UHGV virus genome: UHGV-0179801
Reading direction: 5' to 3' (one strand)
DNA: 43,982 bases
Origin: a virus
Positions 3,195-41,641 of this stretch are shown here, one piece after another (position 1 is the first letter of the stretch; every line of letters starts with the position of its first letter). Position numbers and translations under genes: made by a program. Under the pieces are notes generated by a model, which was not told the origin of the DNA, ran no database searches, and saw only the letters and a list, made by a program, of their open reading frames with translations.

Positions 3195-3896
3195 TTATTT
3201 CCTCAGGGCTTTAAGTTGCCGTTCAAATTCGGCAGGGTTCGATTTATACAGAGCTAAACGCTCCGCTTCACTCATGTCTTTAAACGCTGGTGCGGCCCCG
3301 CCGCCTTTGCTACCGGAAGCCCCGCCGCCGGAAGCTGCATTTGCTTTAATCAAATGCGAAAACGCTTTGTGTTCACGCAGATATTTGCGGAACTGTTCCG
3401 GGTCAGTCGTGATTACGTTACCGTCTGCGCTGACAAACTTAGTAACCACATCATCGCCTTCGAACTCAGTCTTAACGAACGGTGCAAGGATGTCCACTGC
3501 TTCCGGGGTGATAAAGTCACCTGCGAAAGAGCCTAACACCGCTTTACGTTCGCTACCGAGAATGCGCTCTGCCATTCTGGAGATGCGGCCATCTTTCTCG
3601 GCTAACACCGGGTCATACTGGCTACGAATCGTCTTTTCGAACTCGTCCATCTTACCAGCGGCTTTTAACGCCTCCTGGTGGGCACGCTGCCGTTCTTCTT
3701 CGGCCTCTTTTGCTTTACGAGCGGCTTCTTTCTTCTCCGCAAGTAATGCTTCCTGATTAGCCTTAAGCCCGGCAACTTCTTTCTCAATCAGCGCCTGAAC
3801 TTCTTCAGCGGTGAACATTTTCGGTGCGTCACCGCCGCCAGATTTATCTTCTGCTCCAGCTTCTTCCTGGAACGGATAACGTAAAAAACGATTCAT
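3195..3896 (-). CDS. scaffolding protein
   Basis: Ala/Glu/Lys-rich predicted coiled coil (EALLAEKKEAARKAKEAEEERQRAHQEALKAAGK) just upstream of the capsid gene. Start uncertain: ATG at 3896 chosen; track start 3950 is a TTG. Confidence 0.6.
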   Translation of the reverse strand: MNRFLRYPFQEEAGAEDKSGGGDAPKMFTAEEVQALIEKEVAGLKANQEALLAEKKEAARKAKEAEEERQRAHQEALKAAGKMDEFEKTIRSQYDPVLAEKDGRISRMAERILGSERKAVLGSFAGDFITPEAVDILAPFVKTEFEGDDVVTKFVSADGNVITTDPEQFRKYLREHKAFSHLIKANAASGGGASGSKGGGAAPAFKDMSEAERLALYKSNPAEFERQLKALRK

Positions 3897-3978
3897 AGTC
3901 AGTATGTCCCCTGGACGTTGGAATCCGGGCCACCCGGATTTACATGTCAAGAATAAATTATTCCAACATGCAAGGCAA

Positions 3979-4242
3979 CTATTCCAGAATATTCCTCACA
4001 TAATCCTGCAACATGAACACTTTCAGTCTCAGTTGCCGTGCACATTCGGCATTCTGAACGTCGATAGCTAAATCCTCGTCCGCGTCGCTACTTGGCGGCG
4101 CCAGTTTGCACGGCGGCTGCATCATCGTCATATCCGGGGATGGAATTAGCGTTTGCGACGGCGCGGGACTTGAGCAGGACGCGAGCATCGTCGAAAGTGC
4201 ACACGCTGCGGCCAGGCGTTTTAATGTACTTAACGACTTCAC
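3979..4242 (-). CDS. o-spanin (Rz1-like outer-membrane lipoprotein)
   Basis: Signal peptide with lipobox LASC then a Pro-rich mature region; begins in the +1 frame inside the Rz-like gene and extends past its stop (overlapped spanin architecture). Confidence 0.55.
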   Translation of the reverse strand: MKSLSTLKRLAAACALSTMLASCSSPAPSQTLIPSPDMTMMQPPCKLAPPSSDADEDLAIDVQNAECARQLRLKVFMLQDYVRNILE

Positions 4243-4474
4243 GGGTAATCACCTCTGATTTCGTCTTGCCTTCGTTGTCAGCGGCTGCGGCCTTTGATTC
4301 ATCCTGCTGCTGCCGTTGTGTTTTCTTTGCTAACTCGGTCTGTGCTTTCTGCTGTTGCTGCGAAACGAGATTCGCCCGGCCTTCGTTCCAGCCGCTGCGA
4401 TATTGGTAGATGCCGTGGGCGTAAGACAGGATGATGAAACATGCTCCTGCTACGACAGTTGCTTTAAGATTCAT
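4088..4474 (-). CDS. i-spanin (Rz-like)
   Basis: N-terminal TM helix (ATVVAGACFIILSYAHGIY) followed by a charged Gln/Lys/Glu-rich periplasmic coiled-coil region; AAAGGAGAAAC RBS; contains the embedded lipoprotein ORF. Confidence 0.55.
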   Translation of the reverse strand: MNLKATVVAGACFIILSYAHGIYQYRSGWNEGRANLVSQQQQKAQTELAKKTQRQQQDESKAAAADNEGKTKSEVITREVVKYIKTPGRSVCTFDDARVLLKSRAVANANSIPGYDDDAAAVQTGAAK

Positions 4475-4793
4475 GTTTCTCCTTTCTCGATAAGTAAAGC
4501 CCCGCCATAAAGCGGGGCGCTAGTCCTTATCATTTAAACATAGAAACGGCGTAATCTCAGTAAACCAGTTACTTTTTACACAAGCAATAGATTATGGCCC
4601 TTCCGAACGCGTCAGCGTAACTACACTCAGGACTTACGTCCCGCTCCGTTACCTGCCCGCGCCGCGGTCGCTTGTTCATACTTCACAAGCTCAGGTGGAG
4701 CTTAGCACATTTTTAGTGAAAAGTCAACTATTCGAATAGTTTATTCCAAGATTTACAATTCGGTGGAATAACTGGGATACCTAACCAAATAGT

Positions 4794-4822
4794 TTGCACA
4801 CACCAATATAATAGGGTACTAT
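4794..4822 (+). promoter_or_regulatory. sigma70-like promoter TTGCAC-N17-TACTAT with AATAG-N4-CTATT inverted repeat
   Basis: Conserved 25-nt block caccaatataatagggtactattca (4801-4825), near-identical at 6608 and 40231, followed by the conserved leader tcgaaacgaggaga and an ATG. Confidence 0.55.
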
Positions 4823-4850
4823 TCATTACATCGAAACGAGGAGATGAAAA

Positions 4851-5024
4851 ATGTTCAAAGAAAAAGACATAATGCACGAAAACGGCAAATACTGGGTTCT
4901 AAATGATAAAGGAGTGTACTGCGTAATGATTTCCGGGTTTACCCACGCTAAAGCTGATAGTGCATACGCTAGTTTAGATTTAGCGATAGCCCGCTGTGAT
5001 TATCTGGCGAGTAGAGACGCATAA
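4851..5024 (+). CDS. small moron protein (57 aa), hypothetical
   Basis: ATG 4851 after the conserved promoter/leader (gaggagatgaaaaATG); opposite strand to the flanking late genes; followed by a terminator hairpin. Confidence 0.5.
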   Translation: MFKEKDIMHENGKYWVLNDKGVYCVMISGFTHAKADSAYASLDLAIARCDYLASRDA

Positions 5025-5027
5025 ACT

Positions 5028-5050
5028 AAGGCCCCGTAATGGGGCCTTTT
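5028..5050 (+). terminator. rho-independent terminator (AAGGCCCC-gtaat-GGGGCCTT-TT)
   Basis: Perfect 8-bp GC-rich stem, 5-nt loop, T-run; member of a conserved hairpin family recurring at 7183, 30767 and 42010. Confidence 0.6.
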
Positions 5051-5051
5051 A

Positions 5052-5510
5052 TCAATCTGGCTTAGTGACCTTCGCCGCCTTGCTTACCACCTCAACTCCA
5101 TCGGTATCAGTAACTTTAACGAAGTATTCGCCAGCTGCGTTAACCGACAGAGACAAAGCCTGTTCTGGTGCGTTAACCACTTCCTTACCGTCCTTGTACC
5201 AGGTCAGAGTATACGGCGCTTTACCCGCTTTAACTTCGACAGTGATAGTTGCGCTGCCGTCTGCCAGTTCGGCGTCCTGCGGTTGCACAGAGAAATACAC
5301 ATCGCCAGCATCAGCCAGATACGGAATCTCATAAAGCATACCCGCCGCCGGCAGCGCAATACCGGTTTTATCTGCAAACGGCATATCGTCTACGGGCGTA
5401 CCGAGTACACTTTCATCTTCAATAAATACCACGTTCTCGCCGGAGCCAGACACGCGGGCGTACTGGACTACGCGACGCGCGGGTACATCAGTTACTTTGA
5501 AAAAGCCCAT
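5052..5510 (-). CDS. Ig-like domain structural protein
   Basis: Track ORF; GGGGA RBS; C-terminal Ig-like signature (APYTLTWYKDGKEV ... GEYFVKVTD); downstream of the head morphogenesis gene. Confidence 0.5.
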   Translation of the reverse strand: MGFFKVTDVPARRVVQYARVSGSGENVVFIEDESVLGTPVDDMPFADKTGIALPAAGMLYEIPYLADAGDVYFSVQPQDAELADGSATITVEVKAGKAPYTLTWYKDGKEVVNAPEQALSLSVNAAGEYFVKVTDTDGVEVVSKAAKVTKPD

Positions 5511-5512
5511 CG

Positions 5513-6556
5513 TTATTCCCCTTTCAGATAATCAGCAACACGTTTATCGAGTTCCGCCATCTGCTTAAGCGTCAGCGGATTCCCGAAACCATCTACAGAT
5601 ATTACGCGAAACTCTTCCGGTGATATACCGCTGTTACGGAAAATCTTACCGCGTGTCGGCCCGAGTGCTTCATCCTGAAACCATGCCGGTTGTTGTTTCA
5701 GGAACTCGTAATAGGTTGTGTCCGCGCTTACCTGAGTTCCTCCGTCTGCACCCTTAGCCGCACGTTTTGCGCCTTTATCGAGGAAGTCGAACTCCGAGCT
5801 AATTACCGGAGCCGTGCACGACCGGCAGTTCGGATGGGCGGGGGGCATCGGCCCTTTACCAATTTCCCACGTCATCCCGTCTCTGGCTCTGCAAATCGTA
5901 CTTGTACGGCTGTCGAGGGTGGATACCCACTCGTACTTCTCGATGATGTCGTCGTTCTGACGGTACGTCTCGTTACGTGCTTCGTTGGACACGTGGGACA
6001 GCGCGGTGCGTATTACAGTAGCCGCATTGCGCTCAGAGACATCGGCCAGGCCACCCGCGCCAACAACATTCTTAACAATCTGCCGTGTGGTTTGGCCTTG
6101 TACAAATCCCATCTTAACGCCCGTTACCAGGCGCGCGACCTCCGCTTCGCCCCAGCCATCCATCAGCTTGGTGAAATCGACAGGCTTGTCACTTAGTGAC
6201 AGAGGTTGAAACTCGGCAGCGGCCCACACCTGCTCAGCGGTAGGAGTAATAAATTCTGCGTTAACATTGGTCGTCAGTGTTTTTACGTTCCACTCAGCCT
6301 CATATGCCGCCAGTTCCTTAAGGTCTTCTGTCAGCTTTGTTTGCCAGTCACCTGTAAGGCCTGCCAGTGCTTCTTCGAGGTCGCGTAACAGTTTATTCAG
6401 TCTGGCGGTGCTGCGACCGTCGTCGCCGAATAACAGCACCTGCCGTTTTATTTCGTCACGCATCTCCTGAATGAACGGTGTGAGGTCTTTCACCTCGCCG
6501 GATGCGGTGCGTTGCAGCCATATCTGGTGGCTGATTAAGGATGTAAGTAAGCTCAT
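5513..6556 (-). CDS. head morphogenesis / minor capsid protein (Mu F-like, SPP1 gp7-like)
   Basis: Motif STLDSRTSTICRARDG typical of the Mu-F/gp7 family; located after the portal gene; ATG 6556 with GGAGGG RBS preferred over the track start 6613. Confidence 0.65.
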   Translation of the reverse strand: MSLLTSLISHQIWLQRTASGEVKDLTPFIQEMRDEIKRQVLLFGDDGRSTARLNKLLRDLEEALAGLTGDWQTKLTEDLKELAAYEAEWNVKTLTTNVNAEFITPTAEQVWAAAEFQPLSLSDKPVDFTKLMDGWGEAEVARLVTGVKMGFVQGQTTRQIVKNVVGAGGLADVSERNAATVIRTALSHVSNEARNETYRQNDDIIEKYEWVSTLDSRTSTICRARDGMTWEIGKGPMPPAHPNCRSCTAPVISSEFDFLDKGAKRAAKGADGGTQVSADTTYYEFLKQQPAWFQDEALGPTRGKIFRNSGISPEEFRVISVDGFGNPLTLKQMAELDKRVADYLKGE

Positions 6557-6656: not shown

Positions 6657-7178
6657 ATGGTTACTACAGTAATTACTTTCCCTGCGTATGTAGGGGCGAA
6701 AATCTGCAGGGCGAAAAATGATGTGCGCTATTATTTGAACGCTTTTTACATAGACCCTGAAGGATTGATAGTTTCTACGGATGGTCACAGATTGTTCTGC
6801 GACAACGTGAAGACAAACGTCGAAACTGGAGTTCTAATAGACATCAAAGGGAGGGAGCCTTCTAAATTTAACTACGCGGAGGTAGACCACGACAACGGTA
6901 GTGTTTCTTTCTATGACGATAGTAGTGCGCTTGTATGTACACTTCCTATTGAAGTTGTAGACGGGAGATTTCCTTACTGGAGACGTGTGGCCGGCATTAC
7001 GCCGGGTTCAGTCGATAGCATAGGGTTCTCTCTGCGCTATTTGGCGGACGCGTACAAGATTTCTAAGGCATACAAAAATGAAATTGCCCGTTTCGATTTC
7101 CAGGACCAAACAAACGGATGCAAAATATCATTTTCAAACACTGCATTTATGGTGCTAATGCCAGCGCGATTTAAATAA
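6657..7178 (+). CDS. truncated DnaN-like (beta sliding clamp) protein, 173 aa
   Basis: Matches to recalled E. coli DnaN: NDVRYYLN (DnaN DVRYYLNG), STDGHRL (ATDGHRLA), VVDGRFPYWRRV (LVDGRFPDYRRV), SIGFSLRYLAD (EIGFNVSYVLD), C-terminal AFMVLMPARFK (AYVVMPMRL). Roughly half DnaN length; own promoter and terminator. Confidence 0.7.
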   Translation: MVTTVITFPAYVGAKICRAKNDVRYYLNAFYIDPEGLIVSTDGHRLFCDNVKTNVETGVLIDIKGREPSKFNYAEVDHDNGSVSFYDDSSALVCTLPIEVVDGRFPYWRRVAGITPGSVDSIGFSLRYLADAYKISKAYKNEIARFDFQDQTNGCKISFSNTAFMVLMPARFK

Positions 7179-13437: not shown

Positions 13438-13521
13438 CTTCTCTACTCCGTTCTCGTTGTCGATGAAAGTAAATATAGTAGGGTCGAGGATAATAGTCAA
13501 CTAGTCATTACAGAAAATAGA

Positions 13522-18484: not shown

Positions 18485-18517
18485 TCGATTTTGTTAACTG
18501 ATAATGAGGGTTTGAGA

Positions 18518-18688
18518 ATGACACAGAATGAAGTAGCCGAGCGTATCGGTGTTACTCGTCGCACGCTGAATAACTGGTTAAAGAGTGGGAAGTTCCCTGA
18601 TTGTTGTATTCGCATTATGGGCCGCCGTCAGCCAGGTACGTTTGACCGGGAGAAAGTGGAAGCGTGGATTAAGGAGAACGTGAAATGA
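18518..18688 (+). CDS. AlpA/excisionase-like HTH DNA-binding protein (56 aa)
   Basis: EVAERIGVTRRTLNNWLKSGKFP resembles the AlpA-type helix-turn-helix; ATG 18518 with GAGGG RBS (track start 18491 is a TTG). Confidence 0.5.
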   Translation: MTQNEVAERIGVTRRTLNNWLKSGKFPDCCIRIMGRRQPGTFDREKVEAWIKENVK

Positions 18689-21555: not shown

Positions 21556-21584
21556 AAAAAAAATAAAGGGGCGTTAAGCCCCTT
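21551..21584 (-). terminator. rho-independent terminator for the XRE gene (minus strand)
   Basis: AAGGGGC/GCCCCTT stem with a 5-nt loop, followed on the minus strand by a >=10-nt T-run. Confidence 0.6.
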
Positions 21585-21789
21585 CACCAAACGCCAGCCA
21601 CTTTGCGTCTACTTGCAGCACTTCCGCCAGCTTGAACAGCGTCGCTGGACGTACGTCCTGAGTTACCCCAAGTGCCAGCTGGTTAATCGCGCCCTGGGAA
21701 ACACCGGCCAGGACAGCCAGACGGCGCTGGGAGATGCCGAGTTCTTTGCGGCGTTGTTCTACACGGATGCCTAGTTCAGATGGTTGCAT
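21574..21789 (-). CDS. XRE-family (Cro/CI-type) HTH transcriptional regulator (71 aa)
   Basis: LGISQRRLAVLAGVSQGAINQL is a classic HTH_3 helix-turn-helix; AAGGAG RBS; transcribed divergently from the early promoter at 21854. Confidence 0.7.
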   Translation of the reverse strand: MQPSELGIRVEQRRKELGISQRRLAVLAGVSQGAINQLALGVTQDVRPATLFKLAEVLQVDAKWLAFGEGA

Positions 21790-21815
21790 GTCAATTACTC
21801 CTTAGTTAGTTGATA

Positions 21816-21840
21816 TGTGAATAGTACCATATTAATTATT
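21816..21840 (-). promoter_or_regulatory. promoter/operator for the XRE gene (TGnTACTAT extended -10, degenerate AATAG-N4-ATATT repeat)
   Basis: Minus-sense aattaatatggTACTATtcac about 25 nt upstream of the XRE start; shares the tgaatagt core with the other promoters. Confidence 0.45.
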
Positions 21841-21853
21841 TTAGAAAAGCCCA

Positions 21854-21882
21854 TTGACATCATGAATAGTTCGCTATTATAG
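21854..21882 (+). promoter_or_regulatory. sigma70-like promoter TTGACA-N15/17-TATTAT/TTATAG with AATAG-TTCG-CTATT repeat
   Basis: Consensus -35 TTGACA; inverted repeat 21865-21878 overlaps the -10; followed by leader ccaaacgagaggagagacaaaATG. Confidence 0.55.
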
Positions 21883-21913
21883 TTAGCCCATACCAAACGA
21901 GAGGAGAGACAAA

Positions 21914-40510: not shown

Positions 40511-41641
40511 ATGGCCAGGAAGAAAATAACCGACGAACAGTTGCAGGAAGAATTGAACGCCGGTATGAAGAATATCGACATCGCTCGTAAATACGGCATC
40601 TCAGACCGCGTTATTCGCATCCGTAAAGCGAAGCTGGCAAAGAAAGGCGTAGGTCATGGGCGCGACGTTAGCCACCTTGTGCCAGATGGCTACAAGATTA
40701 AAGGAACGTCGTCACTTGTCGATGAGTTCGGCAACACTAAATTGCAATGGGTTAAGACCGACACCGATGCTGAACGTCAGGTTGAACTGATGAAAGCCGT
40801 GGTTGAAGGTATGAAGTCAGAGATTACCCCGGTTGCGCCTGTTAAAGCGACTCGAGCCAAACGTGACGATAAACTGCTCAATCTTTACACTGTGTCTGAT
40901 TTCCATCTCGGTATGCTTGCATGGGCCGACGAGAGTGGCGACGACTGGGACATGAAGATTGCAGAAGACCTGTTCTCTCGCTGGTTCGACGCAGCGTTTC
41001 AGAAAGCGCCGGACGCAGGAACGGGCGTTATTAACCTGCTTGGTGACCTTGCGCACTTCGATAGTCTGGATGCCGTTACGCCGGCAAGCGGTCATGTTCT
41101 TGACGCAGACACGCGCTATCAGAAACTGGTCCGCTACATGATTCGTATGGTCCGCCGTGTCGTTGATATGGCCCTTGTTAAGCATAAAAATGTTCGCTTG
41201 CTTATTGTGCAAGGGAACCACGACGAGAGTGGCATGATTTGGCTGGCTGAGATGTTCAGTACGCTATACGACAACGAGCCGCGTGTGTTCGTCGATACGT
41301 CACCGGATGTTTACAAGATGGCGCGACACGGCAAAACAACGTTGTTCTTTCACCATGGACATAAAGCACGCTTCGACGCTATCGAGCCGGTTATGATTGC
41401 CAAGTTCCGCAAAGCGTTCGGCGAGAGTGTTTACAGCTACGCTCACGTAGGGCACCTGCACCATCAGAAGATTGTAGAAAGCCGTAACATGATTGTTGAG
41501 CAGCACCGCACTTTAGCGGCTAAAGATGCCTACGCCTCCCGCGGCGGATGGATGTCAGGCCGTAGTGCAAACGTAATTACTTATAGCGCCGAATATGGCG
41601 AGGTCGCGCGTTTAACTATTTCACCGGAGATGCTGGGATGA
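40511..41641 (+). CDS. HTH domain fused to calcineurin-like metallophosphoesterase
   Basis: N-terminal HTH-like NIDIARKYGISDRVIRIRKAK; phosphoesterase motifs VSDFHLG, GDLAHFD, GNHDE, HHGH, GHLHH. Confidence 0.65.
   Translation: MARKKITDEQLQEELNAGMKNIDIARKYGISDRVIRIRKAKLAKKGVGHGRDVSHLVPDGYKIKGTSSLVDEFGNTKLQWVKTDTDAERQVELMKAVVEGMKSEITPVAPVKATRAKRDDKLLNLYTVSDFHLGMLAWADESGDDWDMKIAEDLFSRWFDAAFQKAPDAGTGVINLLGDLAHFDSLDAVTPASGHVLDADTRYQKLVRYMIRMVRRVVDMALVKHKNVRLLIVQGNHDESGMIWLAEMFSTLYDNEPRVFVDTSPDVYKMARHGKTTLFFHHGHKARFDAIEPVMIAKFRKAFGESVYSYAHVGHLHHQKIVESRNMIVEQHRTLAAKDAYASRGGWMSGRSANVITYSAEYGEVARLTISPEMLG

Follow-up and report, generated by a model that had tools for sequence, protein, structure and literature searches.

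The viral genome UHGV-0179801, analysed here as a single window of 43,982 nucleotides, carries a perfect 16-bp palindrome, AACTATTCGAATAGTT, at positions 4726-4741, inside a 376-bp gap between the start of an Rz-like i-spanin gene (4474, minus strand) and a small plus-strand moron open reading frame (ORF; 4851-5024). The explanation that we somewhat favour is that this palindrome flanks a conserved minus-strand promoter of the sigma-70 type on its upstream side, with its proximal half serving as one arm of an operator that straddles the -35 hexamer, and that it is not a special operator in its own right. The palindrome is real but is ordinary promoter and operator DNA; the structured RNA downstream of the promoter and the network of Cro-like operators to which the proximal half leads are more worth following. 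Its placement exposes a likely regulatory layout of the Guernseyvirinae, in which sites of the 434 Cro type would lie in essentially every sigma-70-type promoter, and draws attention to a previously unannotated promoter predicted to drive a structured RNA that is conserved, shows covariation and precedes the spanin genes. We did not find the palindrome, the minus-strand promoter or the RNA described in the literature.

A Megablast search with positions 3900-5600 returned 199 phage records, the top ones being Escherichia phages 590B, NTEC3 and BASEL Bas70-76 with 93-94% identity, and on the strength of these matches the window is classed as a Kagunavirus-type (Guernseyvirinae) phage genome. The Guernseyvirinae are lytic, form a large subfamily and are under study for uses in therapy and in synthetic biology (PMC9825357, PMC11990801), and relatives of this phage carry no integrase or lysogeny genes (PMC9825357).

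The palindrome and the predicted promoter beside it

On the minus strand, the DNA at and beside the palindrome reads AACTATTCGAATAG-TTGACT-tttcactaaaaatgTGc-TAAGCT. The hexamer TTGACT (4722-4727), which can be read directly in the sequence, matches the -35 consensus at five of six positions and is followed, after a 17-bp spacer, by an extended -10 element, TGc-TAAGCT (4699-4707, with the hexamer at 4704-4699), for which the predicted transcription start is G4692 or A4691. The bases TTGAC, the TG, T-12, A-11 and T-7 are conserved while neighbouring bases vary. The -10 element takes the form TGmTAAGCT in Kagunavirus-type and TGyTACGCT in Jerseyvirus-type loci, and the latter show TAGACT/TTGACT-17-TGyTACGCT at the same place. 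In addition, the record of phage fBC-Eco01 independently carries a predicted 'host promoter1' at this position. These features point to an unannotated, conserved promoter of the sigma-70 type at 4727-4699 on the minus strand.

Relative to the predicted start, the palindrome occupies -49 to -34 and is centred on -41.5. The first-pass annotation had described it as lying close to the moron promoter at 4794 and in the leader region of the Rz-like gene on the other strand. It does lie between that promoter and Rz, ending 53 bp before the TTGCAC at 4794. As for the leader, the palindrome is indeed upstream of Rz, which is encoded on the opposite strand, but it falls outside the transcribed leader and within the upstream part of the predicted promoter of that leader. 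The surrounding DNA (4720-4779) has a G+C content of 32%, and this most A/T-rich segment of the region adjoins the promoter and the structured transcript. Inspection for an UP element showed that positions -46 to -38 read TATTCGAAT, with a CG centre and no A-tract; Jerseyvirus-type loci have an A5 tract there. A divergent plus-strand promoter using the centre of the palindrome as its -35 (TTCGAA-17-TACAAT) was considered and rejected, as it reaches only 8 of 12 matches and leads to no conserved downstream product.

The sequence AACTATTCGAATAGTT was confirmed, and it is the only perfect palindrome of at least 14 bp in the window. First-order Markov shuffles of the window contain on average 0.75 palindromes of at least 16 bp, and 54% of them contain one or more, so that length and perfection alone are not beyond chance and prove nothing. 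In such shuffles shorter palindromes are more frequent than in the window itself (23 observed against 47.6 expected for those of at least 10 bp, and 7 against 12.2 for those of at least 12 bp), a scarcity that fits restriction-site avoidance; this phage group has been reported to be sensitive to restriction-modification systems (PMC11990801).

What makes the palindrome non-random is its context, namely the presence of a motif arm, the intergenic regulatory setting and the conservation. Each half (GAATAG/CTATTC) corresponds to one arm plus a flanking base of a motif that recurs across the genome, AATAG-N4-CTATT, and we estimate that about 0.8% of the possible 8-nt half-sites hold such an arm. 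This correspondence had been noticed in the first-pass annotation, as had the opposite relative orientation of the halves, and both observations stand: in the palindrome (CTATT-CG-AATAG) the arms point outward with their centres 7 bp apart, whereas in the usual motif they point inward with centres 9 bp apart. The arrangement has no parallel elsewhere in the genome, where a search for a second copy of the palindrome with up to three mismatches gave nothing save one unrelated match, and a search for other CTATT-N2-AATAG arrangements with up to one mismatch gave nothing save one overlap between an operator and a -10 element.

Probable promoter-embedded operators and a candidate Cro-like regulator

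The motif was found by printing the contexts of all AATAGT and ATAGTT matches, which brought out a 14-bp inverted repeat. Nine exact copies are present in the window (14-mer starts at 4810, 6617, 16879, 17322, 18057, 21865, 24432, 28028 and 40239), for an estimated chance number of about 0.04, together with four good one-mismatch copies (starts at 4719, 11051, 13492 and 21820); when up to two mismatches are allowed there are 28 matches, against 15.2 in shuffles. When the nine exact copies were turned into a weight matrix, scoring the whole window with it returned exactly these 13 sites as its best, with the exact copies at 17-25 bits, most of them at 22-25 bits, and all 13 were located in promoter regions of the sigma-70 type. 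Every one of these sites is 14 bp long, with inward arms and a 4-bp centre. They occur in three registers relative to the promoter: over the -10 (TTGCAC-17-TACTAT, as at 4794-4822), in the spacer and abutting the -10 (TTGACA...TATAGT, as at 21865), or straddling the -35 (ACTAG-TTGA-CTATT at 13492-13505, where the -35 is TTGACT), the last being found likewise at position 41332 of Bas70 and 41001 of SETP7. The perfect copies are located at early, middle and moron promoters, and the one-mismatch copies at 4719, 11051 and 13492 all belong to minus-strand promoters of the late region (lysis, packaging and head).

The same repeated motif, which the half-sites of the palindrome match, was previously reported for Kagunavirus fBC-Eco01 as a PHIRE 'phage promoter' motif, tgAATAGTa-ccTATTat-T, and assigned to a phage RNA polymerase (PMC9825357); the palindrome is not described in that work. 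Among the genes listed for Bas70, a well-annotated relative, there is none for an RNA polymerase. Because the motif is found inside promoters of the host type, and in three different registers, it looks like an operator, and the assignment to a phage RNA polymerase looks like a misassignment.

At the promoter considered here, the bases that precede the palindrome join with its left half to give an operator-like site, AAAAGTCAACTATT (4719-4732; AATAG-TTGA-CTTTT on the minus strand), which matches the motif at 9 of 10 positions. Covering -40 to -27, it lies across the -35 hexamer in the same register as the site at 13492. It scores 14.3 bits and ranks 12th in the window, with 0.13 sites of this quality expected per shuffled window; the right half with its downstream partner (4735-4748) reaches 2.1 bits. 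With regard to the features shared by the AATAG-N4-CTATT operators, the palindrome has neither the inward arms nor the 4-bp centre, while the arms of 4719-4732 do point inward. Overlap with the core promoter is seen for both, since 4719-4732 straddles the -35 and the palindrome shares 2 bp with the hexamer. By these scores, one half of the palindrome is part of a moderate site, but the whole palindrome does not qualify as an operator.

The first-pass annotation had named an XRE-family protein as the natural binder, and a suitable candidate is encoded in the window: a 71-residue HTH_3/XRE protein (21574-21789, minus strand) that matches HTH_3 with an E-value of 1e-12 as well as PHROG repressor families, and whose closest solved relative is the Cro protein of phage 434, also of 71 residues (E-value 5e-7). 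Its gene faces a divergent control region that holds the operators 21820 and 21865. The former lies over the regulator's own promoter and the latter in the spacer of the opposing TTGACA promoter (region 21574-21900), a layout that suggests autoregulation. In the close relative K1B4, a helix-turn-helix gene that is a candidate orthologue of this regulator is among only four early genes (PMC12645636). The window also encodes a second small helix-turn-helix protein, of 65 residues and the HTH_17 family (18491-18688).

Judging from this homology and from the form of the sites, the 71-residue protein is likely to bind the motif. The operators of phage 434 are 14 bp long and conserved in their outer arms, and the OR1-OR3 sites of 434 Cro and cI resemble those described here in combining this length and these conserved arms with a variable 4-bp centre, and in overlapping core promoter elements; two of the sites here stand beside the regulator's own gene. 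The two systems differ in distribution and in sequence, as about 13 sites are spread here over nearly all promoters instead of three being clustered in one immunity region, and the arm is AATAG and not ACAA. The palindrome, with its outward arms, does not fit the geometry of the 434 operators, and only the overlapping site 4719-4732 does. A fixed dimer of the Cro type, as expected from the homology to 434 Cro, should not be able to read the outward-arm palindrome.

On these grounds we propose a model in which the minus-strand promoter makes a structured RNA of about 200 nt that runs to a hairpin at 4518-4499, and in which read-through past this hairpin would lead into the spanin genes Rz/Rz1 and then into the scaffold and capsid genes. 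The proximal half of the palindrome (GAATAG on the minus strand) would be the upstream arm of the near-consensus operator AATAG-TTGA-CTTTT (4732-4719), with the -35 hexamer at its centre. The 434-Cro-like dimer would most likely bind 4719-4732 and compete with RNA polymerase; the same would happen at the 12 further copies embedded in promoters. Because the late copies at 4719, 11051 and 13492 have one arm mismatch each, they would be expected to be occupied only after the early, middle and moron promoters, whose copies are perfect, which suggests a graded shut-off. The distal half, AACTATTC, lacks a correctly spaced partner and is most likely A/T-rich upstream DNA, or at most a weak accessory half-site, and the perfect symmetry would be a peculiarity of the Kagunavirus type and not a functional unit. 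What the analysis establishes directly is the anatomy of the sequence, the statistics of the motif, the pattern of conservation and the covariation in the RNA; the identity of the binding protein, the direction of regulation, the transcription start and the role of the distal half are predictions.

Conservation and competing explanations

The 305 bp from the Rz start to about position 4780 are 95-99% identical over approximately 180 GenBank phages. Among 36 Kagunavirus-type IMG/VR loci the intergenic region is 95.9% identical, against 91.3% for the Rz gene, and it is still 94-97% identical in four loci in which the DNA identity of Rz drops to 71-79%. The palindrome is identical in 31 of these 36 loci (plus the window), including the four with divergent Rz, and is contained within a block that is uniformly conserved from about -56 to -7 in the Kagunavirus type; the five variants affect both of its halves and show no symmetric pattern. 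The exact 16-mer was found in 37 IMG/VR contigs, in 33 of them in the same context and in 4 in unrelated contexts, which is about the chance level, and we do not regard it as a general motif.

Jerseyvirus-type loci (SETP7, SS3e and wksl3) keep the promoter and the RNA, and at the position of the palindrome they read CTTTATTCAAAAAGTA, which matches it at 10 of 16 positions and is not palindromic. SETP7 shows the same operator arms genome-wide, and with its own matrix, built from five exact copies, the site AGTAGACTTCTATT ranks 10th in the genome; it belongs to the same promoter and lies 3 bp further downstream. Therefore, the -35 operator has been kept via site turnover and the palindrome has not. 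In a third and more distant type within the Guernseyvirinae (PSDA-2 and SaI_NFG_5579), whose Rz is 53-60% identical, the promoter is a different one, and the palindrome is absent from PSDA-2-type phages. Taken as a whole, the comparative evidence points against the palindrome being a functional unit.

Several findings weigh against the explanation that we prefer. The -10 hexamer matches the consensus at only three of six positions, for which reason a simple consensus scan did not call the promoter, and the operator copy at 4719-4732 has a mismatch in one arm. The 16 bp of the palindrome are 98.9% conserved, compared with 95.9% for the whole intergenic region. Moreover, Jerseyvirus-type loci have an imperfect dyad, TACTTTATT and CAAAAAGTA, which pairs at 7 of 9 positions and has its centre 1 nt away, so that a symmetric site could have been maintained at this position. 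Finally, neither the perfect symmetry nor the distal half is given a positive function by the model.

Part of this record is also what would be expected if the palindrome had no function of its own and were a chance or historical arrangement in A/T-rich upstream DNA, conserved as a young intergenic module that spreads horizontally. The number of perfect 16-bp palindromes expected per window is compatible with this, as is the intergenic identity of about 96% that persists even where Rz falls to 71-79%, a pattern that points to module exchange more than to site-specific constraint. Between the Kagunavirus and Jerseyvirus types the intergenic region is in turn less similar (55%) than the Rz gene (68%), the palindrome has been lost in Jerseyvirus-type and PSDA-2-type phages, and the 17 copies of GAATAG in the genome show no enrichment over the 21 expected. 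We nonetheless hold a complete lack of function to be doubtful, given that a chance palindrome with an operator arm abutting a -35 hexamer is estimated at less than 1%, that the overlapping site 4719-4732 ranks as high as it does, and that SETP7 has an equivalent site at the same promoter. An unlikely alternative, suggested by the perfect symmetry over 16 bp, is a separate site for another dimeric protein of the phage (for example the 65-residue HTH_17 protein, encoded in the window) or of the host, which would act as a class II-like activator or as a second repressor. The centre at -41.5 from the predicted start, a weak -10 that could gain from activation and the 7/9 dyad of different sequence in Jerseyvirus-type loci agree with such a protein; a single-copy site with no similar dyad at any other promoter, and the absence of the palindrome from relatives of the Jerseyvirus and PSDA-2 types in which promoter and RNA are retained, do not. 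With the class II activator sites of CRP and FNR, at -41.5, and with the sites of Mu Mor/C, the palindrome can be compared as a dyad that touches the -35 and is centred at -41.5 from a start that is predicted from the -10 position and not mapped. In contrast to such sites, however, the -35 here is near-consensus (TTGACT) and accompanied by a TG extension, which does not give the promoter an activator-dependent look, the site is unique in the genome and no cognate activator is known; we consider the resemblance to be one of position only. None of the consensus sequences of the E. coli regulators TrpR, ArgR, Cra, NagC/Mlc, Fis, IHF and H-NS is known to fit well, and these comparisons serve as leads and not as tests.

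The arms of 4719-4732 flank the -35, as do those of the lambda cII sites, which have the layout TTGC-N6-TTGC. It is conceivable, although very unlikely in our judgement, that the -35-straddling register (AATAG-TTGA-CTwTT), which is confined to late-region promoters, is an activating one, with the Cro-like dimer placed opposite sigma region 4 as in lambda cII and the outward arm recruiting or positioning a second protein. If this were true, a single small regulator would turn off the early and moron promoters and turn on the RNA/spanin promoter, and the structured leader RNA would control read-through to the spanin and head genes, which would give a common group of lytic phages of E. coli and Salmonella a compact switch from early to late expression. 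The first-pass proposal of a high-affinity operator, or of a site that titrates the XRE-family regulator, has in its favour that the arm with its flanking base is reproduced perfectly in each half, but we find it hardly credible: the outward arms with centres 7 bp apart differ from the inward arms with centres 9 bp apart of all 13 credible sites, the fixed dimer geometry expected from 434 Cro argues against recognition, the scores give weight to the left half only, and a palindrome present once per genome cannot serve for titration when the regulator has 13 or more other sites to bind. Equally improbable is the idea that the region is a cluster of GAATA/TATTC words marking the boundary of a moron-exchange module, or a replication origin primed by the adjacent transcript. 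Such words occur 4-5 times within 60 bp around the palindrome, compared with 2.2 per kb genome-wide, conservation ends at about 4780 where the variable moron cassettes begin, and a promoter with a structured transcript adjoins the A/T-rich segment. On the other hand, the GC skew is featureless at 4.7 kb, with extremes that track gene orientation, the junction of variability is 40 bp from the palindrome, and a proposed paralogy with the Rz1-scaffold intergenic region (3880-4040) was rejected, as the local alignment score of 29 was not significantly above shuffled controls (23.9 +/- 4.7).

The structured RNA and neighbouring elements

The promoter that we predict at 4727-4699 precedes a structured RNA of about 200 nt (4492-4694, minus strand), with a core at 4584-4694 made of a 5' hairpin, P1, and a long P2-P3-P4 hairpin with a GUAA tip. 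The core is followed by an A/U-rich segment and by a G+C-rich, terminator-like hairpin with a weak U tail (4499-4518), which ends about 20 nt before the ribosome-binding site of Rz and in which two stem pairs change on both sides across relatives. In the Kagunavirus type 96% of the alignment cells pair and four pairs change on both sides. A covariance model made from these sequences, R1, gives exactly one match per genome and recovers the Jerseyvirus-type copies with E-values of about 1e-7. In the combined Kagunavirus and Jerseyvirus alignment, which was fitted to the covariance model and thereby leans towards structure, pairing extends to 94.8% of the cells, compared with 27-41% in slid controls, and both partners have changed in 14 of 29 pairs. 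The alignment reaches a covariation score of 0.40, whereas shuffles score 0.15 and none of 500 attained 0.40. P2, P4 and the terminator-like hairpin, with compensatory changes, were also recovered by RNAalifold from a plain MAFFT alignment. That the RNA corresponds to the minus strand is indicated by its many G-U pairs. PSDA-2-type phages have at the expected place an RNA with the expected helices in the same order and with GAAA and GUAA loops, whose best match to R1 is non-significant (E-value 0.33-0.42).

Searches of the window and of the intergenic region against Rfam gave no hit at the gathering thresholds, the best sub-threshold E-value being 0.75 or higher, and a tRNA search of both returned nothing. 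A 36-residue ORF that overlaps the RNA (4679-4569, minus strand) is annotated as a hypothetical protein in Bas70 and fBC-Eco01, and in SETP7 the annotated ORF has another frame and length. It was rejected as a gene candidate, since in relatives it is disrupted by 1-nt indels and loses its ATG to an 11-nt deletion, and it has no family match; it is probably not a gene. The RNA is thus a candidate for a new structured RNA, which may be a leader, a small RNA or an element that controls read-through. The succession of a promoter, a structured transcript of about 200 nt, a terminator-like hairpin and then lysis genes (here Rz/Rz1) and head genes recalls the lambda PR'-6S RNA-tR' region. It differs from the lambda region in that no Q-like antiterminator was identified here, the U tail of the hairpin is poor, and the genes for holin and endolysin are at other places in the genome; no similarity to known leaders is seen for the RNA itself, either in sequence or in Rfam.

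The genes and elements around the RNA and the palindrome are arranged as follows. The Rz-like i-spanin gene occupies 4088-4474 on the minus strand, and an embedded Rz1 o-spanin gene is placed at about 3979-4122 on the same strand from the annotation of Bas70. On the other side, the plus-strand moron promoter TTGCAC-17-TACTAT (4794-4823) has a canonical operator, AATAGGGTACTATT (4810-4823), covering its -10. An inverted repeat, TTATTCC...GGAATAA (4741-4771), is kept in both Kagunavirus-type and Jerseyvirus-type loci and adjoins the variable moron slot that starts at about 4780, where conservation stops and different phages have differing morons or just the terminator of a Hoc-like gene; this repeat, or position 4780 itself, may be a module boundary. 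For genome engineering, such as moron swaps at about 4780, the segment 4490-4780 should be kept intact. The right half of the palindrome is overlapped by a dyad, GAATA-N3-TATTC (4734-4746), whose arms are kept in Jerseyvirus-type loci with a different spacer (AAC here against CTT there, minus strand). As a general motif this dyad was rejected, since the two exact copies and one further copy at a gene junction do not allow it to be generalised. GGAATAA was likewise rejected as a regulatory word, several of its 10 copies resembling Shine-Dalgarno/stop-codon junctions.

Two further observations concern other parts of the window. A plus-strand moron at 6657-7178 sits within the minus-strand head module and has its own operator-bearing promoter (6617); in relatives it is annotated as a DNA polymerase III sliding-clamp-like protein, and the Pfam match is faint (E-value 0.02). 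Between the Rz1 stop and the scaffold gene (3896-3990, minus strand), a GAATAG stands directly 5' of TTGCCT-17-TATTCT and is followed by a hairpin, AATCCGGG/CCCGGATT, so that the combination of GAATAG and TTGnCT is present both there and at the palindrome. This region is kept in phages of the Kagunavirus, Jerseyvirus and SaI_NFG_5579 types, in the last of which it is no longer beside Rz1, and the element is probably the promoter of the scaffold and capsid genes.

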